Shown: in pieces, positions 4,593 through 64,000 of the stretch
How positions within the stretch are numbered: position 1 is the stretch's first letter
How the letters are laid out: every line of letters starts with the position of its first letter
DNA from: an uncultured Gammaproteobacteria bacterium
Lineage (GTDB): Bacteria; Patescibacteriota; Microgenomatia; Levybacterales; UBA12049
Assembly (NCBI GenBank): GCA_964610465.1
Contig: CAZSWA010000006.1
Location: forward strand, 4,332-68,331
Length of the DNA: 64,000 nt
Direction: 5' to 3'
Made by a program: the position numbers and the translations under genes
Notes under the pieces: model-generated
The model's input: only the letters and a program-made list of their open reading frames with translations
What the model was told of the DNA's origin: nothing
Databases searched by the model: none

Positions 4593-4710
4593 AAATTTAT
4601 TTACTGCTTATAATTTGCTCGCAATTAATTATTCTTGTGAATTATTATATCATATACTTCATAAAATGTAAGTACTTTACAAAATGAAGTTGAACTGCTA
4701 ATATATTGTT

Positions 4711-5358
4711 ATGAACAAAACAACAGTTGTTCCATTAAAAACTTTACAAGATAAATGGACCACACTTGCTGATGGAAAAACTTTACAACAAACAGTAGAT
4801 GCGTTAGAACAAAATGGATTCCATACTATTGTCGTAGACAATGCTGAAGAAGCCAAACAAAAAGCATTAGAATTACTGCCCATTGGTTCACAGGTTTTTA
4901 CTATGACTTCCAAAACTCTTGAAAAAATCGGGCTTGCCCAAAAAATTCAAGAATCAGGTGAATATGATTCAGTAAAAAACGCGCTTACTAAATTGGATAG
5001 AAATACGCAAGGGAGAAAAATGCAAATACTGGGAAGCGCTCCGGAATATGCAGTGGGTAGTGTACATGCGGTAACTACTGATGGACACGTACTTATCGCG
5101 TCACGTTCAGGAAGCCAATTACCAGGATATGTGTATGGGGCAGACCATGTAATTTGGATAGTAAGTACACAAAAAATAGTAAAAAATATTGATGAGGGAA
5201 TAAAAAGAATTTATGAGCATGTATTACCGCTTGAGTCTCAAAGGGTAAGAGAAGTCTACGGTATGCCCGAAAGCAGTGTTGATAAATTACTTATATTCAA
5301 CAGAGAACGCCCGGGAAGAATAACAGTTATTCTGGTAAAAGAAAAGTTAGGCTTCTAA
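4711..5358 (+). CDS. LUD-domain (LutC/YkgG-like, DUF162) protein
   Basis: 215 aa; overall similarity in motif order to lactate-utilisation LutC family; modest certainty. Confidence 0.4.
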   Translation: MNKTTVVPLKTLQDKWTTLADGKTLQQTVDALEQNGFHTIVVDNAEEAKQKALELLPIGSQVFTMTSKTLEKIGLAQKIQESGEYDSVKNALTKLDRNTQGRKMQILGSAPEYAVGSVHAVTTDGHVLIASRSGSQLPGYVYGADHVIWIVSTQKIVKNIDEGIKRIYEHVLPLESQRVREVYGMPESSVDKLLIFNRERPGRITVILVKEKLGF

Positions 5359-5432
5359 ATACTTGTAAAATTAAATATTGTATTTATACAACTACTACAT
5401 TATAATCTCTTTATCTCAGTAGTATATAAAAA

Positions 5433-6806
5433 ATGGCAGCTGAAATAAGAGAACAATCAAATTATTCTTCAAGGTCCCCTCAAGAACTCATCCGTGCAAA
5501 AATAGAAACAGAACGTTTGGAAACGATACCTCTTGCTCATGTAAAAACAGAACATGCGTTAGTTGATGAATCTCACGCAAAAGATTTAGGAAACTCTATG
5601 AAGCAGAAAAGAGGACAAATATCTCCGATAGTCGTGAGAGCAAGAATGGAAGATAATGAAGTTGTATATGATGTAATAGATGGGTTCCATAGGACTGAAG
5701 GGAAAAAATTAAATGGGGATGAAAACATAAATGCTACTGTTGTATATAATTGTTCTGATGAAGAGATGTTTGATTTGAGAATACTCGCTGCAAGTTCTGT
5801 ACGTTCTGTTCAATATCCTCGTATTGCTCAATGGATTTCACGATCATTTGACCAAACACCATGGAAAGAAAAAGGTTTAAATGTAGCTCAAGCGTTTGGT
5901 ATCGCTGTAAATGATAGTGTAAAAACTCGAGGCATTGAATTAAATCCGGAAGAAATTGAAGACCTGAAAGAATGGGTGCAGGGGAAAACACAAAAATGGG
6001 GAAAAAGTATCGCTGGAACGTATCAAATTTTACGTGTTGTATCAAATGCTGATCCTGATCTTGTAAAGCAAGTACGAACCTCTGGAGGTGGAAAAGATAG
6101 AAACGGAAGAATTACACCTGCTCGCTTACAGACAGTAGTTGAACAGTTTCCTGGAGAAAAGAATTTTGAGACTCAAAGAGCAGTTCTTAAAGTAGTTGTT
6201 GAAAAAAGACTCTATGCAGAAGAAACTGCTCAACTGGTAAGAGATGTACAAAAACATATACAACCTGGTATGAGCGAGTCAGAAATTTATGAAGTTGCCA
6301 ATAACATTGTGATTACCCATCAGGTATTTCCTGAGAGAGATTCTCAAAAAGATGAATTGGGAGGATGGGATGCGTCAGTAGATGAATTTAGAGAGAAACC
6401 TCATAAAAAACGGACGAGGGCATCTGCAAAAATAATACAAGCTGAAGTAGTAGAAGAACTTCGAAAGCATAGGGATGAAAACAAGAGTCTAAGGAAAGAG
6501 AATGAAAGCTTAAAAACAAAAAATGCTATGCTGGAAGATAGATTGAGAGAACAAAAAGCAGGAACTGATACACTGGGTAGACTCGCTACTCGTATAACAG
6601 AATGGATAGAAACCGCGACATATCTTACAAAAAATGAAAGAGTATGTCTTGAAAGAGTATTTCTCATGCAGGAAAATATAGATGTCGTTGCAAGGTCCTT
6701 CAATATAGCTCCTATGCAGGTATCAAAATTTATACAGAGTGCTCTTTATAGGAAAGGTGTTGAAGAACTAGCAAAGCATAATCCATACTCTTCTCAAACT
6801 AATTAA
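5433..6806 (+). CDS. ParB-like nuclease (ParB/Srx) domain protein with coiled coil and C-terminal sigma-70 region-4-like HTH
   Basis: N-terminal ISPIVVRAR...VIDGFHRTEG (ParB N-domain DGxHR motif); heptad-rich segment KSLRKENESLKTKNAMLEDRLREQ; C-terminal LTKNERVCLERVFLMQENIDVVARSFNIAPMQVSKFIQSAL resembles sigma70_r4. Confidence 0.5.
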   Translation: MAAEIREQSNYSSRSPQELIRAKIETERLETIPLAHVKTEHALVDESHAKDLGNSMKQKRGQISPIVVRARMEDNEVVYDVIDGFHRTEGKKLNGDENINATVVYNCSDEEMFDLRILAASSVRSVQYPRIAQWISRSFDQTPWKEKGLNVAQAFGIAVNDSVKTRGIELNPEEIEDLKEWVQGKTQKWGKSIAGTYQILRVVSNADPDLVKQVRTSGGGKDRNGRITPARLQTVVEQFPGEKNFETQRAVLKVVVEKRLYAEETAQLVRDVQKHIQPGMSESEIYEVANNIVITHQVFPERDSQKDELGGWDASVDEFREKPHKKRTRASAKIIQAEVVEELRKHRDENKSLRKENESLKTKNAMLEDRLREQKAGTDTLGRLATRITEWIETATYLTKNERVCLERVFLMQENIDVVARSFNIAPMQVSKFIQSALYRKGVEELAKHNPYSSQTN

Positions 6807-8301: not shown

Positions 8302-9735
8302 TTACCTTTTTATTTTTTCTAATTCCGGTTGGAGTTCTTTTATTCTTTTGAGCAAATAGTCTCGATTATTTTTCTCCAAATCTTCATCCACTTCTTCAAA
8401 AAGTTTTTGTAAAATCCGGCCGATGATTGGTCCGGGTTTAATATCAAGCTCTTTCATAACATCATTGCCATCAACTACCAGATTTTTGATAGAAAAAGGT
8501 TCAGGAGCAAGTTGTTCTTCAAGCCGTTTTTTAAATAATTTAAGTCTCCAGCTTTCTGCAGTTTGAGTACCTCCACCAAGTCTGTCTCCAATGCGAAGTT
8601 CCATCATATCCTTCACATTTTCAACCCCAACGCGCCTTATAAACCTTCTGACCGCAGCATCAGTGATGTGCTCATCAACTGTAAACATATGCCATCTGAC
8701 AAGCGTCACGATTTTCTGTTTGTCTTTTCTGGAAAACCGTAATCTATCTGCTATCTCTGCAGCAATCTTTGCGCCTTCTATCTCGTGATTGTGGAAAATA
8801 ACATACCCATGCTCATCTGTTGCTGCAACTTTTGGCTTGCCGATGTCATGGATAAGTGCTGCCAAACGGACAACCGGGTCAGATGCTGGAGTAAATTTAA
8901 GAGAAAGAATATTGTGAGTGAAGACATCTGTTTTGTGATGTCTGCCAGGACGCTCCTGAGATACGTCAATACCTTCAAGAAGTTCCGGGATAATATAGTT
9001 TAAAAGTCCTGTATTTTTAAGAAGCATGATACCTTCATACGGATAGTTGCTTGTCAGGATTTTGAGTAACTCATCGTGGATTCTTTCTTTGGATATCTCA
9101 GAAAGAAGCCGCGCATCTTGTACAATTGCTTGAAATGTCCTCTCGTCAATGGTAAATCCAAGCTGTGTTGCTAGGCGAATCGCACGCATGAGACGAAGCG
9201 CATCTTCTTTAAATCTAAGATTTGGATCGCCGACTGCACGTAACACTTTATTTCTTATATCTTCCTGTCCATAGTAAGGGTCGATAAGGTGAGTGTGTAG
9301 TCGATTGTCTTCAGTACGCACCTCAAGCGCAATTGCGTTGATAGTAAAATCACGACGGGACAAATCTTCCTCAACTGTTTTGCCCCACTCAACCCCTGCG
9401 GGATGGCGTCTATCTTTATATTCTTTTTCAGTTCTATATGTAGTAATTTCAAGTACTTCACTTTTTTCTTGTGAGTCTGGCACGCCAAAATTCTCTAACG
9501 CTTCGGTTGGTAAACCTACCGTACCAAACTGATTATCATAAAAACCGCCAGGAAAAAGTTTGAGAATTTGTTCGGGTGTAGCATTGGTGGTAAAATCCCA
9601 GTCGCTTGTTGGTCTGCCAAGAATCAAATCTCTCACACATCCACCAACCAGATAAATTTGAAATCCAGCTTCATGAAATATTCTATTTACTTTTAGTACA
9701 TGTGCTGGAATACCTTCGACCATACCTTGTCCCAT
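8302..9735 (-). CDS. cca: CCA-adding tRNA nucleotidyltransferase with HD domain
   Basis: Head domain GGCVRDLILGRPTSDWDFTT; HD motif LAALIHDIGKP; 477 aa. Confidence 0.8.
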   Translation of the reverse strand: MGQGMVEGIPAHVLKVNRIFHEAGFQIYLVGGCVRDLILGRPTSDWDFTTNATPEQILKLFPGGFYDNQFGTVGLPTEALENFGVPDSQEKSEVLEITTYRTEKEYKDRRHPAGVEWGKTVEEDLSRRDFTINAIALEVRTEDNRLHTHLIDPYYGQEDIRNKVLRAVGDPNLRFKEDALRLMRAIRLATQLGFTIDERTFQAIVQDARLLSEISKERIHDELLKILTSNYPYEGIMLLKNTGLLNYIIPELLEGIDVSQERPGRHHKTDVFTHNILSLKFTPASDPVVRLAALIHDIGKPKVAATDEHGYVIFHNHEIEGAKIAAEIADRLRFSRKDKQKIVTLVRWHMFTVDEHITDAAVRRFIRRVGVENVKDMMELRIGDRLGGGTQTAESWRLKLFKKRLEEQLAPEPFSIKNLVVDGNDVMKELDIKPGPIIGRILQKLFEEVDEDLEKNNRDYLLKRIKELQPELEKIKR

Positions 9736-11489: not shown

Positions 11490-11918
11490 TTAGGATTCGT
11501 TTACAGCTTCTTTGGGATAAAAGTGATTATACACATGAGAAGCAGTTTTAAGCAAATCTATGCCATCCCTTTTCGCAGCAGAACGTACACCATTTGTTTT
11601 CGCAAGCCCTTCCTTTATATTTGTAATTCTTGCATCTAATGTGGCAATTAACTCTTGGAGATTGTTTCCACCTATATTACATTTTGAATAGACTTTTGTA
11701 TAGGCATCTCTTGCTCCTTGTAATGCTTGTTCTCCTACTGTGTCTAAGAGCATACCTGCAGTGCCTATAAGACCGTTGGGCAGCACTATTTCTGGTCGTT
11801 GTTTCTTTTCAGGAACAACAGTGCCTCTAAATACAACCTGTTCACCAATATCATTACTCCTTTCTAAAGGAGTTTGTTGTCTAGTTTCTTGAATTGGTGC
11901 TAAACTTTCTAACGCCAT
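11490..11918 (-). CDS. Hypothetical protein
   Basis: 142-aa ORF, second gene of a two-gene minus-strand unit; no motif recognised. Confidence 0.3.
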   Translation of the reverse strand: MALESLAPIQETRQQTPLERSNDIGEQVVFRGTVVPEKKQRPEIVLPNGLIGTAGMLLDTVGEQALQGARDAYTKVYSKCNIGGNNLQELIATLDARITNIKEGLAKTNGVRSAAKRDGIDLLKTASHVYNHFYPKEAVNES

Positions 11919-11924
11919 ATTATT

Positions 11925-12263
11925 TTATCTCTTTTCTCCGTATGGTTTGTGACGAGATGCGTGTAATTGTGCAGCTGTAAATATAAGGTTTTTTGCATAT
12001 ATTTTTGCCAAGCCAGCCCGTTCAGGTATTGCAAGATCATCTCTCGTTTTATTAACTTTGCGGTCTAATTCTGTCATTAATGGTCGTCTGTCACTTAGTT
12101 GAGGACAAACTTCTTTATATACTCTATTAAATTCTGACTGAGCTCTTCTAAGTATTGGTTCAGCTGTTTTAGGATCAGACAGAAGATCGTCAAATTTACC
12201 TTCTATTCTAACGAATCCTTCACTCATTGGTTGTTCTATATAATCTATTTTTTCTCTTTCCAT
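11925..12263 (-). CDS. Hypothetical protein
   Basis: 112-aa ORF; ATG at 12263 preceded by GAGGA RBS; structured leader upstream. Confidence 0.3.
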   Translation of the reverse strand: MEREKIDYIEQPMSEGFVRIEGKFDDLLSDPKTAEPILRRAQSEFNRVYKEVCPQLSDRRPLMTELDRKVNKTRDDLAIPERAGLAKIYAKNLIFTAAQLHASRHKPYGEKR

Positions 12264-12273
12264 ATTTTTTCCT

Positions 12274-12302
12274 CAAAAAAAATCTCCCATTTCTTGGGAG
12301 AT
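12274..12302 (-). terminator. Leader stem-loop plus U-tract (intrinsic-terminator-like attenuator) immediately 5' of the RBS of gene 11925..12263
   Basis: Minus strand reads ATCTCCCAAGAAATGGGAGAT (8-bp stem) followed by TTTTTTTT, then GAGGAAAAAATATG. Confidence 0.45.
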
Positions 12303-12511
12303 TGGTCTTTGTTCCTTTTGCGCCTTTACGCCATTACCAATCTCCCTCGCCCTTAAAGGGAAGGAGATGCATAATTCCAACGTATTGACACCAAAAATTT
12401 TTCATATGCCAAAAGATAGTATAAAACGCAATCACCATCTTGTCAAGCACAAGAAATCCATGTATCATATGCAGAGTAAGCGCAAGCTAAAAGCGTAAAA
12501 AAAAGGCTAAA

Positions 12512-13888
12512 ATGAATAGTATGAAACGAACACTAGCCAAAGATACAGCCTCAGAAGCGGGGAAGGAAATTCTCGTTGAGGGGTGGGTTCAGGCACGACG
12601 TGACCATGGAAAGCTCATATTTATTGATTTGAGGGATAGAAGCGGGCTTCTGCAAATTGTATTTAATCCAAAAGTCTCACAACAAGCCTATGAAACAGCC
12701 ATAAAGCTCCGGCCTGAGTTTATTGTTTCGATAAAAGGTAAAGTCAATCCCAGACCTGAACGGCTTATAAACCCCAAAATCGTAAGCGGTACTGTAGAGC
12801 TTGAGGCAATTGAGGCTACTATTATAAGTAGCGCCGAAACTCTGCCTTTTGACATGGGTGGAGAAGCGCTTAATCTTGAATTACCAACCCTTCTTGATTA
12901 CCGATCCCTTACCTTAAAACATGAAAAAGTCCGAAAGATATTTCTCATCCAGGCAGCACTTGCTGAAGAATTTAGAAAAGTCGCAAAATCTCTTGAGTGT
13001 GTTGAAATTTTTGTCCCAACCATTGCTGCTGGGGCTACAGAAGGCGGAGCTGAAGTATTTAAACTAGATTATTATGAGCATGAAGCATTTATGACGCAAA
13101 GCCCGCAGCTTTACAAGCAAATTATGGTAGCAGTGTTTGAGAGAGTATTTACCATTGCCAAAGCGTATCGTGCTGAACCATCAGTTACTACACGGCATTT
13201 ATCAGAAGCAACTCAAATGGATATTGAAATTGGATTTATCAGTAAGTTTGAAGAACTTTTGGATGTTTTAGAGTTGGTAGGAACGACCATGATAAAAAAT
13301 GTTTCTGAACAGTATGAAAATGTTCTTAAAGAATTTGGTGTTGAGAAGCCACTCGTTCCTCACAAAGTGCCAAGACTCACGTTAAGAGAAGCACAAGTAA
13401 TTGTTACAAAGCGTACAGGTCGTGACTTATCAAGAGAGAAAGATTTAAATCCCGAAGATGAGAAAGAAATATGCGCCTGGGCCAAGGAAGAGCATAAATC
13501 AGATTTTGTCACAATTACCCATTTCCCAACAAAAAAACGCGCATTTTATACTATGCCTGACCCCAAAGACCCAGAATACAGTTTAAGTTATGATTTACTC
13601 TTTCGAGGGCTTGAAATCTTAAGCGGCAGCCAACGTATTCATGACTACAACGAATTGGTTGAGATGATGAAGAAAAAAGGAGTAAACCCACAGACTTTTG
13701 GCATGTATCTTATGGCATTTAAGTATGGCATGCCGCCAGAAGGCGGGTTTTCATTTGGGCTGGAAAGACTTACAATGAAATTACTGGAATTGCAGAATGT
13801 ACGTGAGGCATCTCTTTTCCCACGGGATATGGAGCGTGTTGATGAAAGATTTTCAGTTACTGATAAAACTGCTACTAAAAATAAGTAA
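12512..13888 (+). CDS. aspS: Aspartyl-tRNA synthetase, short archaeal/eukaryal-type (possibly non-discriminating; AsnRS not fully excluded)
   Basis: Class II aaRS motifs: QSPQLYKQ, FRAEPS..TRHLSE, C-terminal GGFSFGLERL; 458 aa with no bacterial GAD insertion. Confidence 0.75.
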   Translation: MNSMKRTLAKDTASEAGKEILVEGWVQARRDHGKLIFIDLRDRSGLLQIVFNPKVSQQAYETAIKLRPEFIVSIKGKVNPRPERLINPKIVSGTVELEAIEATIISSAETLPFDMGGEALNLELPTLLDYRSLTLKHEKVRKIFLIQAALAEEFRKVAKSLECVEIFVPTIAAGATEGGAEVFKLDYYEHEAFMTQSPQLYKQIMVAVFERVFTIAKAYRAEPSVTTRHLSEATQMDIEIGFISKFEELLDVLELVGTTMIKNVSEQYENVLKEFGVEKPLVPHKVPRLTLREAQVIVTKRTGRDLSREKDLNPEDEKEICAWAKEEHKSDFVTITHFPTKKRAFYTMPDPKDPEYSLSYDLLFRGLEILSGSQRIHDYNELVEMMKKKGVNPQTFGMYLMAFKYGMPPEGGFSFGLERLTMKLLELQNVREASLFPRDMERVDERFSVTDKTATKNK

Positions 13889-54032: not shown

Positions 54033-54281
54033 AACTTTGTAAATAATCAAAAGATTTGAAAGGTGGTGAAGATTGATGAAGGAGTTTATAAGAAGATTGA
54101 TTAGTATATTTGGAAGAAAACCAGCCTACGCGCCAGTACGAGTGAGATAGTTTTTTTGCTTTTTTTACATTTTCCTCATGTGATATCTTCTATTATCTTG
54201 TATTCTCAAGATAAATCTTACAAATTTTTTTCAATTCCTTTACAAAGTAAACAGTATTGTATAGGTATACTTTTCACAAAA

Positions 54282-56423
54282 ATGAAACACCTAACTGCTC
54301 TTATCTATCCATACAAAACTGAACTATTAATTTCTTCAATAGCAATACTCGGTTTTGTGTTATTTATTCCTGTGTTTACCTATGTCTATTTTGCCAATGA
54401 TTTAAAAAGTAAAGATGCAATCATGAACAGGAATAATACAGGGATTATTTTAACTGATAGAAATAACAAACCATTTTTTACGTTTTATCAAGCAAAATAT
54501 ACAAGTTCTGTTTCCCTTTCTCAAATACCGGCGTTTGTGCAGGAAGCGGTTATTGCCTCAGAAGATAAAGATTTTTATCATCACTCAGGATTCTCATTCG
54601 TATCAATTATTCGTGCTTCATTATATGATTTGCTTCATCAGGATGTAAGTTATGGCGGCTCTACAATTACTCAGCAATTAGTAAAAAATGCCCTGTTAAA
54701 TTCCAATAAAAATTTTTTGCGAAAATATCAAGAACTGGTACTTGCACAAGAAATTGAAAGACGGTATAGCAAACAAGAGATTCTGGAAATGTATTTGAAT
54801 TCCGTATATCTTGGAGAAGGAGCATTTGGAGTTGATAATGCCGCACTCACTTATTTTGGCAAGCATGCAAAAGACCTCACTCTTGCACAAACAAGTTTTT
54901 TGGCTGCAATTCTCCCATCACCTTCAACTTTGTCTCCTTTTACTGGAAGTATTTTACAAGCAAAAGTGAGGCAAAGGATAGTTCTTGAAAAAATGTATGA
55001 GCAAAACTACATTAACAAATATCAAGAATTGCAGGCAGAAAAAGAACAGCTTACTTTTAATAATTCTAATCAAGATATCAATTCCTATGCTCCGCATTTT
55101 GCGCTCATGGTTCGGGACGAGCTTATAAAAAAATATGGTGAGGAATATATTTCCCGCTCAGGATTTCGAGTACGAACTACACTAGATCTTGAGAAACAAA
55201 AAGTTGCAGAACAAGCGGTCAAAAAACAAGTCACAAATCTCGCTCTCGATAATGTATCAAACGGCGCAGCGGTTGCAATTGATCCAAAAACCGGAGAAAT
55301 ACTTGCGCTTGTTGGGAGTACCAACTGGTATGATAATAAATTTGGCAAAATGAATCTGGCTACTACCCCTCGTTCTGTTGGTTCTTCCTTTAAACCTATC
55401 GTGTACTCGGCAGCTTTTGAAGAACATCTCATTACCCCTGCGACACTACTTCATGATGTGCCAACGGTATTTCCCGGAGGATATGCTCCTCTTGATTATG
55501 ATAGAAAATTTAGAGGAAGTGTAACAGTACGACGGGCATTATCAAATTCTCTCAATGTTCCAGCAGTTGAAGTAATGACAAAAGTAGGTTTACCTAACGC
55601 TCTTGCAATGGCAAAGAGACTTGGTGTCACATCACTTGGTGATCCATCAAACTACGGTTTGTCTCTTGTTCTTGGCACAGGTGAAGTTCCTCTTGTTGAG
55701 CTTACTGATGCTTATGCTGTTTTTGCCAACAATGGAATACATAATCAACCAGTAACAATACTTGATATTTATAATAAATACAATACAAAAGTGTATTACT
55801 ACAAACCAAAACCTCAGCAAGTGCTAAGTCCGGCTGTTGCATTTCTTATCTCATTAATTCTTTCTGATAACAACGCACGGGCTGAAGAATTTGGAAATTT
55901 GTTAACTATTTCACGGCCTGCTGCGGTTAAAACGGGTACGGCAGAGGATTATAAAGATGCATTAACTATCGGCTATACTCCAAGTCTTGTCGTTGGAGTA
56001 TGGGTTGGCAACAATGATAATAGCGTGATGGATAGTGTTGCAGGTTCCCTTGGGGCTGCGCCAATTTGGAAAGATATGATGGAAAATTATTTAGCAAATA
56101 CGATAGTTGAAAATTTTTCTCCGCCATCAGATATTGTACAAGCAAATGTTTGTGGCAATGGAACTGTAATACGAGATGGAAACAGAATATCATACGGTCA
56201 GACAGAGTATTTTATAAAAGGTACACAGCCTATCAATACTTTTTGTACTGTAGCTCCAAGAATTGCATTTCCAAATGGGGTAATTCCATCTCAGCAGCCT
56301 TTTCCAAATTACCAAAATCAAAGTCCAGATACCCAAAATATTGGTAAGGAAATACAAAAAAGAATACATGAGGAAATAAAGCAAACAGAACAAGCCAGAA
56401 AAACCAATGCTATATCTGAATAA
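54282..56423 (+). CDS. Class A penicillin-binding protein (bifunctional transglycosylase/transpeptidase, PBP1A family)
   Basis: GT51 motifs EDKDFYHHSGF, GGSTITQQLVKN; transpeptidase SVGSSFKP, SNS, KTGT; start placed at MKHLTAL. Confidence 0.85.
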   Translation: MKHLTALIYPYKTELLISSIAILGFVLFIPVFTYVYFANDLKSKDAIMNRNNTGIILTDRNNKPFFTFYQAKYTSSVSLSQIPAFVQEAVIASEDKDFYHHSGFSFVSIIRASLYDLLHQDVSYGGSTITQQLVKNALLNSNKNFLRKYQELVLAQEIERRYSKQEILEMYLNSVYLGEGAFGVDNAALTYFGKHAKDLTLAQTSFLAAILPSPSTLSPFTGSILQAKVRQRIVLEKMYEQNYINKYQELQAEKEQLTFNNSNQDINSYAPHFALMVRDELIKKYGEEYISRSGFRVRTTLDLEKQKVAEQAVKKQVTNLALDNVSNGAAVAIDPKTGEILALVGSTNWYDNKFGKMNLATTPRSVGSSFKPIVYSAAFEEHLITPATLLHDVPTVFPGGYAPLDYDRKFRGSVTVRRALSNSLNVPAVEVMTKVGLPNALAMAKRLGVTSLGDPSNYGLSLVLGTGEVPLVELTDAYAVFANNGIHNQPVTILDIYNKYNTKVYYYKPKPQQVLSPAVAFLISLILSDNNARAEEFGNLLTISRPAAVKTGTAEDYKDALTIGYTPSLVVGVWVGNNDNSVMDSVAGSLGAAPIWKDMMENYLANTIVENFSPPSDIVQANVCGNGTVIRDGNRISYGQTEYFIKGTQPINTFCTVAPRIAFPNGVIPSQQPFPNYQNQSPDTQNIGKEIQKRIHEEIKQTEQARKTNAISE

Positions 56424-56514
56424 TTATTGCTACTCTTACAATCCATTCTATTAGAATACGTATTGACAAGTTTCCGCTAATATTATTAGATGAATATAGT
56501 AGTATTTTCCTGCC

Positions 56515-57465
56515 ATGGATACAAATGATAAAAGCGCTATTCCAAACCAAGAACCACGAGTTCAGCCAAATAACACTTTACCCAACAATACTGTTCCACT
56601 AGCTTCGACTCCAGCACAACCGGTAGCTTCAACACCCCCTCCACCTGTTTCCTCACAGCACAAAAGTAATTACTCTACCGCATTTGTTATTATTTTTCTC
56701 ATTTGTGCTTTTCTTAGCGGTCTTATTCTAGCAATGGTATTTTTCCAAAACGAACTGCAAAAACTCAACGCTGCAAAACCATCGGCAAGTAGTACATCAT
56801 CTATTTCCAAAACTGTAATTGTTGGTACTGACGCAACAGCTCCGCCTATGGAATCGGTGAATAAACAAGGAGGGTTAATAGGATATGATATTGATTTAGG
56901 ATATCGTTTAGCCAATGAAATGGGGGTAAAAGCTGAGTTTAAAAACATTCCCTGGGATAATATATTTCAGGCACTTTTGGATAAGAAAATTGACATGATT
57001 ATATCTTCAGTTACTATTACTGACGAAAGAAAACAAAAATATGCATTTTCAGATTCATATATAAATGCAGGACAGGTTATCGTTTCAAGGAAAGATCATC
57101 CGTATAAAACTACAGCAGAACTTATGGGTAAGAAGCTATCTGTTCAAAAAGGGACAACGGATGAAAAAGAAGCATTAACACTTACAAATCCTAATCTTGT
57201 AGTAAGTTTCAGTGATTTTGTTGATGCGACAAAAGCTTTAGCCAATGGGCAAGTAGATGCGATGATATCTGATCTTACATTTGCAAAAGGATTTATCAGT
57301 GAATACGATAATTTAAAAATTACGAGTGATCCTTTCACCAATGAATATTATGGAGTAGTTATGAGAAAAGAAAATAAAGATCTTCTAAAAAAAGTAAACG
57401 ATGCGTTAAATATTTTACAGGTAAACGGCGTACTCACAGACTTAAAACAGAAATGGCTCAATTAG
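56515..57465 (+). CDS. Membrane-anchored amino-acid ABC-type substrate-binding protein (SBP_bac_3 family)
   Basis: Low-complexity N-terminus and TM, then VIVGTDATAPPMESV...GYDIDLG...IDMIISSVTIT.. Confidence 0.7.
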   Translation: MDTNDKSAIPNQEPRVQPNNTLPNNTVPLASTPAQPVASTPPPPVSSQHKSNYSTAFVIIFLICAFLSGLILAMVFFQNELQKLNAAKPSASSTSSISKTVIVGTDATAPPMESVNKQGGLIGYDIDLGYRLANEMGVKAEFKNIPWDNIFQALLDKKIDMIISSVTITDERKQKYAFSDSYINAGQVIVSRKDHPYKTTAELMGKKLSVQKGTTDEKEALTLTNPNLVVSFSDFVDATKALANGQVDAMISDLTFAKGFISEYDNLKITSDPFTNEYYGVVMRKENKDLLKKVNDALNILQVNGVLTDLKQKWLN

Positions 57466-57481
57466 GAGACACAATAAATGA

Positions 57482-59761
57482 ATGAAATTCTCAATACGTA
57501 CAAAGTTACTTATCGGTTTTGCATTGCTTCTTACGTTATCCTCGTTAATCCAGACATTTTCCTTTAGTATCACACGGGATTATATTTATTCACAAATCAG
57601 TAACTCACAATTAAACGAGGCAAATAAAGGTGCTAATACAATACAGGCATTTTTTAAGAATTTAAGTTCTATTAACTTCGGCCTTGCACATACATATAAA
57701 GAGAATATTTCTACCCCAAGCGCCTCAAGTAGCTCAAATTTTGTCTATATTAATGAATATACTATAAAGAATAATGATCACATCAAGAAAATTTCCTATC
57801 TTACTCCTGCAGGACGTGAACTATATAAATTTGATGAGCATGGGCAGATGTCACAAGATCAGCTTAACTATGAATTATTTACTGAAGAATTTAAGTCAGC
57901 AGCTTCAGGCAAAACAACTATTTCAAAAGTATATTATCTCGATAAGGAATTAGGTCCTCATATAGATATATTTACTCCCATTTTTCTCAATAATACTGTT
58001 TCGGCTGTTATTAAAATGCAGATTAGCCTGGAAAATTTAAGGCTTACTCTTGCCGATATAAAAGTCGGAGACAACGGGTATGTATATGTAGTAGACGAAA
58101 AAGGGAGACTTATTGCGCATCCATCACAACAATTCCTGTCGCAAAGACCTAATCTATCTAAAAGAAAAGTTATCACAGCAGCTTTGCAAGGCAAAGAATT
58201 ACCAAGGGCGGCTGAGGTTTATAAAGATGAAAAAAATACTATCGTAGCTGCAAAAGCAGTAAAAATTTCGGGAATAAACTGGGTAGTTGTTTTTGAACAA
58301 CCTATATCTGAAGTATATGGTTTTCTGGATTTTACCAGAAACCTATTTATTTTTACTCTCATATCTTCAAGTTTACTACTCCTCTTGATTGCTCTTTTTA
58401 TTAGTGAAAATTTAACTCGATCGATAAGAACACTAGAAAAAGCTACTACATTACTTGAAAAAGGAATGCTTGATAAACCAATTAATATCAAGACAGGGGA
58501 CGAGATTGAATCATTAGCCGAATCATTTAATTTAATGACATATAACTTGCTGCAATGGGAAAATTCTCTAAAAAAAGAAAAGCGGGAAATGGAAATCCTG
58601 CTTCAATCATTAACAGATGGAGTAATAGCACTTGACCAGAATTTTACTATACTTCTTTTTAATAACGCGGCCGAAAAAATAACAGGCTTAGCTGCAAAAG
58701 CAGTTATATCACGAAAAATAGATGAGGTGTTGTATTTATATATGAACGACAAAAGGATACAACTCTCTACGTCAGATATCACTTCTCAAGAATTTGAGAA
58801 AAAATTACTTGAAAAAGGGTTAAATTTTATGAATCTAAACGGGAAAAAAATATCTATCTCTGTTACCATCTCTCCTCTTTTGTTTGATGATAAAACACAT
58901 TCTGGATGGATAATGACTTTTCGTGATACCACAAAAGATGCAGAACTTGAAGAAATGAAAATAGACTTCGTCTCAATGGCTGCACATGAATTGCGTACAC
59001 CTCTTACTGCTATCAGAGGATACGCCTCTCTTTTGCTGGAGGTAAGCACGAAACTCACTGATGAAGAGAGAGATTATGTAAAACGATTAATTATTAACAG
59101 TGAAAACTTAGCCAGTCTTATTGATAATTTACTCAATGTTTCAAAGATTGAACGAAATCAATTCAATATTGTAAAAGCTCCACTGGATTTAGCAGAAATT
59201 ATAAAAAGTATAGTCGAAGGATTAAAAGAACTAGCCAAAACAAAAAGCCAAACACTTGAGCTCAATATTCCTAATGATAAACTTCCTATAGTCATGGCTG
59301 ATAAATTCCGTATTAGTCAGGTAATAGCAAATCTTGTTTCTAATGCACTTAATTATACTCCTGAGAAGGGTAAGATAATAGTAACCGTTGATATACGAGG
59401 AGATTATTTACAAGTGGCAGTAGCTGATAACGGACGCGGAATTCCAAAAGATGCGATTCCAAAATTGTTTACCAAATTCTTCCGTGTAGCAGGGAAATTA
59501 GAACAAGGAAGTAAAGGCACAGGGCTTGGGCTCTTTATCTCACGCTCAATAATTGATATGCATAGAGGAAAAATTTGGGTAGAAAGTGAAGAAGGGAAAG
59601 GCACAACATTTACCTTTGTTTTACCTCTTGCAAAACCCGAAGAAATAGCAGAATATCAAGAACAAAAAGGGAAAACTACCTTGACTGGTCAGCACACACC
59701 AGGTATTATTAATAGAGATTTAAATACAATAACAACAAAAGAGGTTGATAAAACAATATAA
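57482..59761 (+). CDS. Sensor histidine kinase with extracytoplasmic Cache-like domain, HAMP, PAS, HisKA and HATPase
   Basis: Two TMs flank a ~270-aa periplasmic domain; H-box HELRTPLTAIRGY; G-boxes DNGRGIP, GTGLGL. Confidence 0.8.
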   Translation: MKFSIRTKLLIGFALLLTLSSLIQTFSFSITRDYIYSQISNSQLNEANKGANTIQAFFKNLSSINFGLAHTYKENISTPSASSSSNFVYINEYTIKNNDHIKKISYLTPAGRELYKFDEHGQMSQDQLNYELFTEEFKSAASGKTTISKVYYLDKELGPHIDIFTPIFLNNTVSAVIKMQISLENLRLTLADIKVGDNGYVYVVDEKGRLIAHPSQQFLSQRPNLSKRKVITAALQGKELPRAAEVYKDEKNTIVAAKAVKISGINWVVVFEQPISEVYGFLDFTRNLFIFTLISSSLLLLLIALFISENLTRSIRTLEKATTLLEKGMLDKPINIKTGDEIESLAESFNLMTYNLLQWENSLKKEKREMEILLQSLTDGVIALDQNFTILLFNNAAEKITGLAAKAVISRKIDEVLYLYMNDKRIQLSTSDITSQEFEKKLLEKGLNFMNLNGKKISISVTISPLLFDDKTHSGWIMTFRDTTKDAELEEMKIDFVSMAAHELRTPLTAIRGYASLLLEVSTKLTDEERDYVKRLIINSENLASLIDNLLNVSKIERNQFNIVKAPLDLAEIIKSIVEGLKELAKTKSQTLELNIPNDKLPIVMADKFRISQVIANLVSNALNYTPEKGKIIVTVDIRGDYLQVAVADNGRGIPKDAIPKLFTKFFRVAGKLEQGSKGTGLGLFISRSIIDMHRGKIWVESEEGKGTTFTFVLPLAKPEEIAEYQEQKGKTTLTGQHTPGIINRDLNTITTKEVDKTI

Positions 59762-59762
59762 G

Positions 59763-60161
59763 ATGAAAAAAATTTTATTAGCAGAAGATGATTTTTTTAT
59801 TAGAGATATCTATAAAAGAATTTTTGTAAATGGTGGCTATGAGGTTGATGTTGCTGAAGATGGCGAAATTACATTGAATAAGCTGAAAGCCCAGCCTTAT
59901 GATCTAGTATTGCTTGATATCATGATGCCAAAAGTCACGGGGATTGATGTACTAAAAACATGTAAAGCATTTGATTCTCCAATAAAGAATATCCCTATTT
60001 TCCTCATTACTAACTTGGGTCAAGAAAGTATTATAAAAGAGGCATTTAGACTAGGCGCAAATGGATATTTCTTAAAGGCTCAACTGACTCCACAACAAAT
60101 TCTTGCAGAAATAAATGCTTTTTTTGAGAATAAAGAAAATCCTAATGCACCTATTACATAG
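59763..60161 (+). CDS. Single-domain response regulator (CheY-like)
   Basis: KILLAEDD, LLDIMMP, receiver fold; starts 2 nt after the kinase stop. Confidence 0.8.
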   Translation: MKKILLAEDDFFIRDIYKRIFVNGGYEVDVAEDGEITLNKLKAQPYDLVLLDIMMPKVTGIDVLKTCKAFDSPIKNIPIFLITNLGQESIIKEAFRLGANGYFLKAQLTPQQILAEINAFFENKENPNAPIT

Positions 60162-60401
60162 AATCATTTACCACCTATTAAACCATAGAAAATCATTGAA
60201 AGATTATGCAGCAAGCATTCTCGATATCTGTACGCCTTTTTTTCGGTAGCAAATTCCAAGAAATTCAAGCTGAAGAGTCACTTCTCATAAAAACTATTGT
60301 GCGACATAACCTACAGGAACGAAATTTATTCTCCACTAAGTTTGACCGGTACCCCATATACTAAGACAATATTCTGAGATAATTTGAGAGAATAAAGATA
60401 T

Positions 60402-61056
60402 ATGGGGTTTGTAAAAGTAACACCAAAAGAGATAAGAGATGAAATTCTTGCGAAAGTAAAAGCGGGAGAAAGAGTCGCGGCTCTTGTAAAGCAGTATGGA
60501 CTATCTGATAGAATAATTTATGGATGGCTGCATAAAACCACAGGAGAAGGAACTGTTTCCATATGATTTATGGGTTTCAGACGTAAGTTTTCTAAAATTT
60601 CAAGGAAGATTCTGGTATTTAGTAACCATTGAAGAGATTGTAAACAGAAGGATTATTGGAGCGCATGTTGGCAAAAAACATGATAGGTATTTAGTATTAA
60701 CCGCTGTAAAAGAAGTCCTCATTCAAACAAAAGAAGCTCCTTCAATTTTTCATTCTGATCAAGGCACAGAATTTATGGCAGAGGAGGTAACTTCCTTTTT
60801 GAAAAACTTAGGAACTCAAATTTCAGCCTCTGACAAAGCAAGTTCCTGGCAAAACGGCTATCAAGAAAGTTTCTTTGGACGCTTTAAAGATGAAATTGGA
60901 GATATAAATCGCTTTGACACTATTGGAGAATTAATTGAAGAAATTTATCTGCATATCCACTATTACAATACTCAAAGAATTTATACCGCATTAGAAATGC
61001 CACCCGCCGTTTACGCAAATGCTCTCAGAGCATTGTCGGAAAAAATGGGTACTTGA
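60402..61056 (+). mobile_element. Degenerate IS3-family insertion-sequence remnant (truncated OrfA HTH plus frameshifted OrfB integrase-core fragment)
   Basis: OrfA' 60402..60566 MGFVKVTPKEIRDEILAKVKAGERVAALVKQYGLSDRIIYGWLHK (HTH), no leucine zipper or frameshift window; no terminal inverted repeats recognised by eye. Confidence 0.7.
60520..61056 (+). pseudogene. IS3-family transposase OrfB (rve integrase core) fragment
   Basis: DLWVSDVSFLKF..., HSDQGTEF, NGYQESFFGRFKDE = DDE catalytic-core region. Confidence 0.65.
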
Positions 61057-61475
61057 CACACGGGCGACGAGGACAGTTATTCCCTTCCATGCGCCAGCCA
61101 GGTACGGGGATGTTTCGGAAAGCGGACATGCTGAGAGAGGCGCCAAAAGGTGACGACGTACGGCTCTATGTTGAGTTGTTGCGCCGTGCGCATCGTCGCG
61201 AGACGGGAGGATCGCTTCCTCATCCAGCCAAGTGTCTATGCGTCGCTGTGCCTGCTCGAGGCTGGCGTTCCACACCTTTGGATATACGAGCAGATGTCCC
61301 ACCCCAATCGCGGAAATCGCCGAAGTGGCCGATGTCCTGAATGGCTACATCGTGAAGAGCCCATGCGCTCAGGCCGACGGCGATGCTGAAGATCTTCTTG
61401 GGCTCAGGGAGCGGGCGGGAATGACAATGGGGGATGACAGGAATCTTGTTCTGGAAGAGATTTTTACTTATTATC
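61057..61475. other. ~420-bp high-GC (roughly 55-60%) segment of foreign composition between the IS remnant and purA
   Basis: Abrupt compositional shift; overlapping ORFs in five frames (61053..61340+, 61150..61389+, 61232..61483+, 61220..61486-, 60991..61302-) as expected for high-GC DNA. Confidence 0.5.
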
Positions 61476-62816
61476 TTACCTAACAATTATCGCATTTCTC
61501 TGCGGCCCTGTAGAAATATATGTAACCTTTAAATTTGTTTGTTTTTCTACCTCTTCAATATATTTTTTTGCAAGAGGAGGTAAATCAGCATATTTTTTTA
61601 TCCCTTTTAGTGATTGCTGCCAGCCTTTGAGTGTTTTATATACGGGTTGTATTTCTGCAAGGAGTAGTTCATTGACTTCATAATATGATACTTTCTTGCC
61701 TTTATAGAGGTAGCCTGTACAAATTTTAATTTCTTTAAAAGTATCAAGTACATCAATTTTGGTAATGGCAATTCCTGTAAATCCACATATTTGTCCGGCA
61801 AATCTCACAAGCTCTGCATCAAACCAGCCGCATCTTCGTGGTCTTCCGGTAGTAGTTCCATACTCTGCTCCAATTTTACGAAGGCTTTCTCCTGTATCAT
61901 CAAATAATTCAGTCGGGAAAGGTCCTGCACCAACCCGTGTCGTATAGGCTTTCACGACACCTATCACATCATCAATGTATTTGGGAGGAATACCGGCTCC
62001 TGCATTGAGTCCGCCTGGTACTACATTTGATGCAGTGACATAGGGATACGTGCCCCAATCATTGTCCAGAAATAATGCATGTGCGCCTTCAATCAGAATA
62101 GATTTATTTTGAGAAAGCGCTTTTTGAATAAAGGGATATGGTTCTTTGATGTAGGGAAGTAGTTTTTTGCGGAAGCCAAAAAATATATCTTCAATTTCTT
62201 TTTGGTTGAATTGTTGCTCAGCAAAGGTGGCAATAATTTTATTTTTGACTGATGAATGTTTGCGAAAAGGAAATAAATTTTCTTTGTTACTTAGTGCACT
62301 TATAATCTTATTTTTTATCGCGAGTTGCGTTGAAAGCTTTTCTGAGAAGTGCTTTTTATCCAGAAGATCAAAAAGTCGTATGCCGTTATAACTTACCTTA
62401 TCAGCATAGGTTGGTCCAATTCCGCGGCCGGTTGTTCCTGTTTTGGCTTTGCCTTTGGCTTCCTCATAGAGTTTGTCCAGTATTTTGTGGTAGGGCATAA
62501 TGATATGACAGCGTGGAGAAATAAAAAGTCTGTCTTTAAGGTCAATTCCAGCTTTTGTAAGTATCTCTATCTCTGAGATAAGTACTTCAAGATCCAAAAT
62601 AACGCCATTGCAAATATATGCTTTTATTTTGGGAGCAAATATACCTGATGGAATAAGATGCATGGGGAATTTGCCATACTCATTGACAACTGTATGTCCT
62701 GCGTTGTTGCCTCCATGAAATCTGAGAGTCACATCTGAAGATGTTGAGATGAAATCAATTATTTTCCCTTTGCCTTCGTCTCCCCATTGAGAGCCAATAA
62801 CAAGTGTGACTGCCAT
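61476..62816 (-). CDS. purA: Adenylosuccinate synthetase
   Basis: N-terminal GSQWGDEGKGKI P-loop; 446 aa. Confidence 0.9.
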   Translation of the reverse strand: MAVTLVIGSQWGDEGKGKIIDFISTSSDVTLRFHGGNNAGHTVVNEYGKFPMHLIPSGIFAPKIKAYICNGVILDLEVLISEIEILTKAGIDLKDRLFISPRCHIIMPYHKILDKLYEEAKGKAKTGTTGRGIGPTYADKVSYNGIRLFDLLDKKHFSEKLSTQLAIKNKIISALSNKENLFPFRKHSSVKNKIIATFAEQQFNQKEIEDIFFGFRKKLLPYIKEPYPFIQKALSQNKSILIEGAHALFLDNDWGTYPYVTASNVVPGGLNAGAGIPPKYIDDVIGVVKAYTTRVGAGPFPTELFDDTGESLRKIGAEYGTTTGRPRRCGWFDAELVRFAGQICGFTGIAITKIDVLDTFKEIKICTGYLYKGKKVSYYEVNELLLAEIQPVYKTLKGWQQSLKGIKKYADLPPLAKKYIEEVEKQTNLKVTYISTGPQRNAIIVR

Positions 62817-62900
62817 TTTACAGCTTAAGTTTAGACTAGCTTATTGATAAAAGCAATAAGTATTTAATAACTACAAATAGGAATTAAAAATATATAACTG

Positions 62901-63158
62901 TTATTCTCTAACAGGTTTTGATTCTCTAACAGGCTTTGTGGAAAAGTAAACCATTTGTTCTTGACTATTTCCTGCAATTTCTGCTTTTGATAAATCTCTC
63001 ACAATATTAGTTCTGTTCTCACGTGTTACCTCTGATGCAAATACCCCTCTGATTACTCTCCCTGATAATTCTTGTCTATCTCTTCCATGAAACTTATTGT
63101 GCAGTTCACTTACATCAAGTATTTGGGAACTAAATCTTACTTTTCCATAATTTTTCAA
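62901..63158 (-). CDS. Hypothetical small protein (non-ATG start)
   Basis: 85-aa ORF starting at TTG; frame open upstream to a stop at ~63228. Confidence 0.3.
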   Translation of the reverse strand: MKNYGKVRFSSQILDVSELHNKFHGRDRQELSGRVIRGVFASEVTRENRTNIVRDLSKAEIAGNSQEQMVYFSTKPVRESKPVRE

Positions 63159-63273
63159 AATATCCTTTGCTTCCTCAATCTTATCCTGAGGGCAAACAAA
63201 TTCAAAACGATTCTATTTTAGCTGTTCATTCGAGATATCATTATTTATAAATTTTTTCAGTTCTAATTATAAC

Positions 63274-63666
63274 TTACTCTTCGAAAATGAAGGTATAGCT
63301 TATTTCTCTTCTTCTTGGGCCATCGAGTTCTACAAGTACTATTCTTTGCCAGGTGCCAAGGACGAGTTTTCCATCTTGTACAGGAATAGTAAGTGATGCG
63401 CCGATAAGAGATGAAAGAATATGATAGGTTACATGGGACGGGTTGTGCGGATGACGATAATGAAGCTTTGGCATCATTGCCTCAAACGCATCAAGCATAT
63501 CGAGGTCTGTTCCCGGATCTAAATCAGCAGTAGTCAGAGCAGCTGTAGTATGTTTTACAAAGAGTATACAGATACCATTTTCTTGATTTTCGATTTCGTT
63601 TTCAATCGTATGAGTAATATCAAGGATTTGTTTCTTCTTCTGGGTTGAGATTGTTACTGTTTTCAT
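63274..63666 (-). CDS. YjbQ-family (UPF0047) protein
   Basis: FVKHTTAALTTADLDPGTDLDM ... HILSSLIGASLTIPV matches YjbQ family. Confidence 0.75.
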   Translation of the reverse strand: MKTVTISTQKKKQILDITHTIENEIENQENGICILFVKHTTAALTTADLDPGTDLDMLDAFEAMMPKLHYRHPHNPSHVTYHILSSLIGASLTIPVQDGKLVLGTWQRIVLVELDGPRRREISYTFIFEE

Positions 63667-63832
63667 TTAGATAATTATATCAAAGAATTTTTATGCAATT
63701 CTTACAGTATTTTTATTGTATTTACAATAATCAATTGTACGATGGTTTAGATATTACTCAGTATTTACTATGAAGTTATTTTTATTGAGAGAATTTTACT
63801 ATTTTAGATTAGTAGTCAATCAAGGAAAGGGG

Positions 63833-63882
63833 GCTGGACTTTGCGAAGTCCAGCATCCCTTCCAATCTCTTGATTGGAAGGG
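63833..63882 (+). promoter_or_regulatory. Two tandem GC-rich stem-loops in the 5' leader; the second overlaps the RBS of the downstream gene
   Basis: SL1 GCTGGACTT-tgcg-AAGTCCAGC (9 bp); SL2 CCCTTCCAAT-ctcttg-ATTGGAAGGG (10 bp), whose 3' arm runs into GGGAGGTGA RBS. Confidence 0.35.
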
Positions 63883-63893
63883 AGGTGACATGG

Positions 63894-64000
63894 ATGATTA
63901 GAACAGCAGTAGTTGCAGGAATTGTATTTGCTCTGTCATTATTTGCAGCCGGAGCAGTTGCATTTGGACAAACGTCAACATCAACACCATCTCCAAGTCC
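63894..64000 (+). CDS. Secreted/exported protein, N-terminal fragment (continues beyond window)
   Basis: MIRTAVVAGIVFALSLFAAGAVAFGQTSTSTPSPS = signal-peptide-like; track lists 63896..64000. Confidence 0.4.
   Translation, partial: MIRTAVVAGIVFALSLFAAGAVAFGQTSTSTPSPS

Follow-up and report, generated by a model that had tools for sequence, protein, structure and literature searches.

A defective IS3-family insertion sequence abuts an orphan GC-rich block 3′ of purA in a Levybacteria-like genome

We analysed a 64-kb stretch of contig CAZSWA010000006.1, from a Levybacteria-like genome of the Patescibacteria; this whole stretch is called the window below. Over its 64 kb the window is AT-rich, with 35.8% GC. 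Between the convergent ends of a response-regulator gene and of purA, the adenylosuccinate synthetase gene, lie a defective insertion sequence (IS) of the IS3 family and, directly against its right end, a GC-rich block about 370-380 bp in length (61059 to ~61439, 59% GC). Coordinates are collected in Table 1. With moderate confidence we read the locus as a real, dead scar, consisting of the IS3 element and a decayed remnant of foreign GC-rich coding DNA, and as a product of ordinary wear in a Levybacteria-like genome of the Patescibacteria. The block is probably without present function. We infer its foreign origin, its coding origin, and the order and mechanism of the events from the features described here.

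Table 1. Features of the regulator-purA locus and its neighbours, in window coordinates
Feature	Position	Strand	Basis or remark
PBP1A-type gene	54156-56423		
Solute-binding protein gene	56515-57465		
Cache/PAS histidine kinase gene	57482-59761		
Receiver-only response regulator gene, left native neighbour	59745-60161	+	PF00072 9.6e-23
AT-rich spacer (34% GC), regulator stop to IS left end	60162-60342		No recognisable content
Internally deleted IS3-family insertion sequence, 716 bp	60343-61058	+	blastn to L082; L083 is one whole IS
Left terminal inverted repeat (IRL), TGACCGGTACCCCAT	60343-60357	+	Same 15-mer left of transposase genes in other copies
Truncated OrfA, 54 amino acids, HTH only	60402-60566	+	TGA stop created by deletion junction
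Truncated OrfB, open 178-amino-acid frame with DDE core	60520-61056	+	Other frame than OrfA; homology from residue 10
Deletion junction	60545-60563	+	~390-410 bp lost relative to L083
Right terminal inverted repeat (IRR), ATGGGTACTTGACA	61045-61058	+	Includes transposase stop codon
Orphan GC-rich block, 59.5% GC, coding-like phase signal with frame change	61059-61426	none	Composition
Inverted-repeat-like motif ATGGGGGATGACA, right edge of GC-rich block, IRR orientation	61427-61439	+	Lead only
AT-rich 36 bp (31% GC), GC-rich block to purA stop	61440-61475		
purA (adenylosuccinate synthetase), intact, right native neighbour	61476-62816	-	PF00709 2.2e-163; full-length matches to relatives
UPF0047 gene	63274-63666	-	

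Ends of the element. An earlier note on this DNA had described a degenerate IS3 remnant spanning 60402-61056, without terminal inverted repeats. The element is indeed defective, but it is not without ends: an alignment search with blastn and homologous copies located both inverted repeats, intact around an internal deletion, and they extend the span to that given in Table 1. The repeats are imperfect, complementary at 11 of 15 positions with one gap (aligned by eye), and end 5′-TG...CA-3′. Because they are short and imperfect, a repeat search of the window did not list them. The left end, which begins TGACC..CCCC, presumably recalls the IS407 subgroup.

The validation of these ends comes from other copies of the same element. 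One of them, L083 (1123 bp), is exactly one full-length IS; it starts with TGACCGGTGCCCCAT, ends with ATGGGTGCTTGACA, and so runs TGACC...TGACA. With up to three changes allowed, the IRL 15-mer lies on the left side of the transposase genes in L081, L082, L164, L166 and L167; it begins contig L081 and marks the start of the homology to the window in L082. It has a single match in the window. Left ends like TGAC(C/T)GGTACCCC are present in the contigs of all five further copies except L165. At the right, ...GGGTACTTGACA, or a variant of it by one or two bases, closes the IS in L081, L082, L164/L165, L166 and L167; all extend to ...GGG(T/A)(A/G)CTTGACA or nearly that sequence, beyond which they have nothing in common. 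Six independent homologous copies (L083 and the five further ones) thus end at the same bases as the window IS, which is therefore bounded at both sides.

Coding remnants of the element. The IS has 36% GC, rising to about 50% in its last 60 nt. Its first open reading frame (ORF) is the HTH piece of OrfA that the earlier note had recognised. It matches HTH_28/HTH_Tnp_1 weakly, is 58% identical to residues 1-53 of the 84-amino-acid (aa) OrfA of a related element, and covers positions 3-43 of the IS3 transposase profile NF033516. The second ORF, in another frame, carries the DDE integrase core, likewise as noted earlier: it contains rve (PF00665, 2.4e-14), rve_3 (1.2e-10) and rve_2 domains. Its best NCBIfam model is NF033516 (transpos_IS3, 3.2e-37), and IS481 follows at 2.9e-10. 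The transpos_IS3 score of 128.6 does not reach the equivalog cut-off of 160, as the ORF covers no more than positions 215-366 of the 369-position profile. This ORF has 932 homologues at E<=1e-5, among which full-length forms have 255-295 aa and those with names are IS3 family, InsO-family or plain putative transposases. A predicted IS3-like D, D, E triad (~60 and ~35 spacing) is present in it. The residues, assigned by eye from motif position in the alignment with a 280-aa OrfB (P0087), are D21 (WVSD), D80 (HSDQG) and E116 (YQES), with spacings of 59 and 36, and all are conserved in P0087.

Internal deletion. Residue 10 of the 178-aa ORF aligns with residue 111 of P0087. From the two ORF alignments (OrfA 1-53, OrfB from residue 111) it follows that the zipper, the slippery A-run and the OrfB N-terminus are missing, as had been claimed before. 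The deletion was mapped with the blastn segments shared with L082, since a MAFFT global alignment to L083 misplaced the left arm. The window IS and L082 are 69% identical in amino acids and 74% in nucleotides; window positions 60342-60520 correspond to L082 102-273, and 60563-61058 to L082 730-1225. The deletion took the OrfA C-terminus, a run of nine A residues (A9) and about 110 N-terminal residues of OrfB. In L083 this A9 slippery run stands between OrfA and OrfB, within the segment that the window IS has lost. As a side observation, the called OrfB of L083 is in frame +1 relative to OrfA at the A9 run (L083:285-305), not in the classical -1 frame, which hints at transcriptional slippage or at an indel in that copy.

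Judged by sequence, the window IS is a defective IS3-family member whose relatives, and not this copy, hold the OrfA/OrfB frameshift architecture. It is predicted to be unable to make the OrfAB transposase, but its two inverted repeats remain and the ORF with the DDE core is still open. With IS911, IS3 and IS407 it shares the order of an HTH OrfA followed by an rve DDE OrfB and the imperfect 5′-TG...CA-3′ ends; through its relatives it also shares the full length of 1123 bp, the A9 run between the ORFs and, in L164, a 3-bp target-site duplication (TSD). It is unlike them in lacking about 400 bp (the frameshift region and the N-terminal HTH_21 part of OrfB), OrfAB and a TSD. Two inverted repeats around a truncated coding region also recall the non-autonomous, internally deleted IS derivatives that could be mobilised in trans, with the difference that no second, autonomous copy of the IS was found in the 64-kb window.

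The GC-rich block. The earlier note's jump to roughly 55-60% GC was borne out (59.5% against the window's 35.8%), and the block is the sole stretch of the 64 kb in which any 300-bp window exceeds 50% GC. Its first base, 61059, directly follows the conserved terminal ...TTGACA of the IS. Placed by maximum likelihood, the left change point in GC content has a support interval of 60984-61061, with the IS end inside it, and the right change point falls at 61442 (interval 61419-61461). The length of about 420 bp first proposed was too great, because 36 bp of AT-rich DNA separate the block from the purA stop. The block had also been placed upstream of purA; this gene is read from the minus strand and has its stop codon at 61476-61478, which puts the IS and the block 3′ of it. 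The 1.56 Mb of related loci contain only three islands at least 18 points above their own background. The block is not cargo of the IS, because the flanks of the other copies have 35-39% GC, differ from one another, and are unrelated to it; this candidate was ruled out on the flanks of six other copies.

No TSD flanks the IS, with GTT at the left and CAC at the right. This indicates a later rearrangement or a junction that did not arise by transposition. The copy in L164 has a 3-bp TSD (TAG/TAG), and those in L082 and L166 have none, so that one of three other copies with both flanks shows a TSD.

Coding-like signal in the block. In 120-nt windows of the block, the mean spread of GC content among codon phases was 0.226, against 0.132 +/- 0.036 in shuffles (P=0.012); by the same statistic purA, the histidine kinase gene and the DDE ORF give 0.20-0.23. 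The six frames contain 14 stop codons against 24.3 +/- 4.1 in shuffles (P=0.006). Seven overlapping ORFs of at least 40 aa occupy five of the six frames, in agreement with the overlapping ORFs first reported. The longest stop-free run, of 95 codons, is not above chance (P=0.39). The phase with the highest GC content, expressed as coordinate modulo 3, is 0 at 61080-61230, 1 at 61230-61300 and 2 at 61290-61380. A GC phase that shifts along the block is expected of a frameshifted pseudogene and so fits a relic of GC-rich coding DNA. The pattern is consistent with a minus-strand reading with two frameshifts, which includes the IFSIAVGLSAWALHDVAIQDIGHFGDFRDWG of the earlier note; in the right half it is also consistent with a single plus-strand frame at 61232-61483. 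There is moderate support, then, for the block being a frameshift-broken relic of protein-coding DNA from a GC-rich genome. The earlier description of a GC-rich coding fragment from an unrelated organism is thus supported only indirectly, by the contrast in composition, the GC periodicity and the stop depletion.

Searches with the block. The similarity searches that had been suggested, by blastn and with six-frame protein readings, were run and gave no match in any resource searched. Pfam, PHROGs and NCBIfam had no match for the long ORFs, which cover five of the six frames, and neither the Protein Data Bank (PDB) nor a tblastn of plasmids had one for the concatenated six-frame readings; a fragment of a known protein family was rejected as the identity of the block at the thresholds used. 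A common contaminant or vector was rejected after blastn against plasmids, phages (phiX and lambda type included) and E. coli genomes gave no match. A further candidate, the 3′ end of a second, GC-rich, diverged IS3 transposase gene, was rejected with a targeted OrfB hidden Markov model, which gave E>1 in all six frames (Z=6). In 163 related loci (1.56 Mb) blastn and tblastx showed nothing similar to the block, and exact or wobble DNA patterns taken from it were found zero times in JGI metagenomes (one pattern) and zero times in IMG/VR (three patterns). With no homologue on either strand in the resources searched, no donor can be named.

Proposed course of events. We suggest that an IS3-family element came to lie in the short space between the convergent response-regulator and purA genes, and that it then lost about 400 bp internally. 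The 370-380 bp against its right end would be a decayed, frameshifted coding remnant from a much more GC-rich source. Two routes may have brought it there. The IS may have inserted into a larger acquired GC-rich island, of which the left side would then have been removed by an adjacent deletion anchored at the IS end. Alternatively, incoming DNA with the same IS may have recombined with the locus, using the IS as homology anchor, while its far end was joined illegitimately. A role of this kind for IS copies that no longer function is raised in PMC3410848: in a recipient, such a copy could let donor DNA be captured through homologous recombination. Two features point to one or the other of these routes, a junction placed precisely at the IS end and the absence of a TSD. 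Adjacent deletion anchored at an IS end after insertion is known IS behaviour. The locus resembles the products of such deletion, or of IS-anchored illegitimate recombination, in having a foreign-native junction exactly at an IS terminus and no TSD, and it differs in that the process would here be read from the end state only. To our knowledge the copy-out-paste-in transposition of IS3-family elements does not itself carry flanking DNA, and therefore the scar of IS-mediated acquisition that the earlier note proposed would refer to a recombination event at the IS and not to the block being transposed. That proposal agrees with a block that starts at the base after the IS terminus and with the missing TSD, and it would be an interpretation of these two features.

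Several observations weigh against a scar with a decayed foreign coding remnant. The periodicity is modest (P ~0.01), and the maximum spread taken alone is not significant (P=0.17). The phase data favour neither strand, as the plus-strand frame and the frameshifted minus-strand reading both fit. AlphaFold2 gave the 83-aa plus-strand ORF (61232-61483) a predicted local distance difference test score (pLDDT) of 41, which is uninformative. The six-frame readings had no match at E<=1 among 5.8 billion clustered proteins, and the repaired minus-strand reading had none among 1.84 billion representatives with full HMMER; a coding fragment recently acquired from a sampled lineage should have matched. 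The missing TSD is weak evidence, since this criterion is noisy in metagenome contigs. Finally, the relatives used for synteny are 52-66% identical and so distant that there is no true pre-insertion allele among them, and a search with PurA in GTDB genomes and JGI metagenomes found no closer relative that could supply an empty-site allele (best identity 66-67%).

A possible assembly or amplification artefact. A GC-rich 380-bp piece of another organism in the metagenome may have been spliced in at the boundary of the IS repeat, or a chimeric read may have been incorporated. The left junction is the exact end of a repeat, where assembly graphs branch, and in L083 and L167 the assembler did break at this IS terminus. 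Two of three other IS copies lack a TSD, as if their flanks had been mis-paired. The block matches nothing in the lineage, and its exact ORFs are absent from a protein collection that contains the flanking genes of the same contig. However, the block is bordered on its two sides by the regulator gene and purA, which are adjacent in two relatives, so that an artefact would have required two separate mis-joins at a distance of about 380 bp from each other. Moreover, there is no long repeat at the right junction, no other compositional break in the window, and no match to E. coli, plasmid or phage sequences. The assembly chimera that the earlier note offered as its second option is thus disfavoured, and we regard an artefact as unlikely.

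Possible capture from a host. In a bolder version of the capture idea, the defective IS would have served as a portable homology anchor, or a surrogate right end at 61427-61439 would have been used, and a naturally competent, host-dependent cell of the Patescibacteria would thereby have taken up DNA from an organism that is GC-rich and as yet unsampled, perhaps its own host. For the present locus we consider this version a long shot.

A possible mobile transposition unit. The motif at the right edge of the block raises another explanation, in which a transposase supplied in trans used it as a surrogate right end, so that the IS and 368 bp of 3′ flank from an earlier GC-rich location moved together in the manner of ISEcp1. 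The pattern ATGGGN{2,5}TGACA occurs at two sites in the 64 kb, against 0.44 expected: one is the IRR and the other, in the same orientation, is this edge. The right change point at 61442 is 2-3 nt from the end of the motif. However, the pattern was devised after the match had been seen, and an unbiased local alignment of the IRR to 61400-61460 was not significant, as 13-50% of background tiles score at least as well. CTTGACA, which does not vary in six IS copies, is missing from the motif, there is no TSD outside 60343/61439 (GTT against GGA), and the window contains no second copy. The likeness to ISEcp1-type units, which combine the IRL with an alternative downstream IRR, lies in the sequence of IS, flanking DNA and then a correctly oriented IR-like motif at a compositional edge; ISEcp1 differs in its IS family and transposition chemistry, and here the motif match is weak and no TSD is present. 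We know of no established route for flank capture via surrogate ends by IS3-family copy-out-paste-in elements. A mobile unit of this kind is very unlikely.

A possibly functional block. The block might instead have a function, either as a structured RNA that went unrecognised or as a small gene for an orphan protein, such as the 83-aa plus-strand ORF, expressed at the 3′ end of purA. GC-rich islands in AT-rich genomes are often RNA genes, and the open 83-aa frame would explain the phase signal over 61230-61430 without a frameshift. A related Levybacteria-like genome offers a possible parallel: in L060 (CAYRKM010000001.1, 39% GC), an island of 52-64% GC at 11900-12520 on the plus strand has a strong strand-specific folding signal against shuffles (z=-4.7, and -0.08 on the other strand). 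By eye it consists of two tandem units, each with a GC hairpin CCGGCGC(G/A)AGCCGG, a Shine-Dalgarno-like box GGAAGG(A/G)G, a start codon and a short ORF of hydrophobic character. Rfam has no family for this island, whose sequence is unrelated to the window block. Against a functional block, Rfam had no match at E<=1 in 59000-64000 nor at gathering level in the whole window, and folding against shuffles was unremarkable on both strands, both for the whole block (z of -1.14 and +0.95) and locally (all 120-nt windows between -1.5 and +2.1); a structured RNA was rejected as its identity on these two grounds. The 1.56 Mb of related loci contain nothing similar, the searches yielded neither a protein family nor a homologue, and candidate starts have no Shine-Dalgarno sequence at a suitable distance. 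The low pLDDT of the 83-aa ORF counts against a protein as well. A present function, whether RNA or protein, has in our view little probability.

A possible native sequence. That the block is a locally GC-rich gene remnant of the lineage itself, such as one for a Pro/Ala/Gly/Thr-rich secreted protein like that of L113, where a low-complexity ORF at 8428-8847 raises GC to 58% in a related 37% GC genome, is hardly credible, as low complexity and P/T-richness are absent from all six readings and the block matches neither any relative nor any protein.

The regulator-purA site in relatives. The best matches of the window PurA, with identities of at most 66-67% in one-genome-per-species GTDB contigs and JGI metagenomes, are Patescibacteria, mostly metagenome-assembled genomes of Levybacteria/Levyibacteriota. 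In a complete Levybacteria chromosome (L023) and in L029, a 52%-identical response regulator is stop-to-stop with purA at a distance of 1-10 bp. In L008, the most syntenic relative, a PBP1A homologue follows purA after 22 bp, and the solute-binding, kinase and regulator genes, the IS and the GC-rich block are all absent between the two. None of the relatives compared has an equivalent of the 1.3 kb at 60162-61475. From these arrangements it follows that the region 3′ of purA varies between lineages and that this 1.3 kb is extra. The two-component module itself (solute-binding, kinase and regulator genes, 56424-60161) may have arrived by insertion or as a lineage-specific gain. In the region of the left spacer, a 52-aa ORF at 60206-60364 had no PHROGs match.

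Other observations were made around purA. The window PurA has 446 aa, most relatives have 421-423 aa, and a minority (L004, L005, L084, L085 and L146) have about 445 aa; about 22 residues therefore appear to be inserted internally in one PurA subgroup. From the start of purA to the UPF0047 gene the window has a spacer of 457 bp (62817-63273), against ~5-50 bp in L001, L008 and L020. This spacer contains an 85-aa orphan ORF on the minus strand (62901-63158) without a Pfam match and an 18-bp tandem duplication at 62903-62938, and it may be another small insertion. In L060, a GC-rich island of about 1.3 kb (52-63% GC, 4700-5990) lies directly upstream of purA, with overlapping ORFs, some of which have predicted transmembrane-like stretches. 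It seems that DNA of unusual composition accumulates beside purA in more than one lineage.

The locus shows no new mechanism or system; what is new is one defective IS3-family member. For annotation, the IS3 element should be recorded as end-bounded and internally deleted at 60343-61058, and the 3′ flank of purA as a variable site. As the block reminds us, a small island of deviating composition in a candidate-phyla-radiation genome can be a complete orphan. Interest in the locus is low unless reads and a donor match document an IS-anchored capture of foreign, possibly host, DNA. If capture from a host were true, the block would be a physical trace of DNA flow from host to epibiont via an IS3-family element. 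If reads confirm the junctions, a decayed remnant beside a defective IS would be a small, datable example of the entry of foreign DNA at an IS end in a reduced, AT-rich genome.

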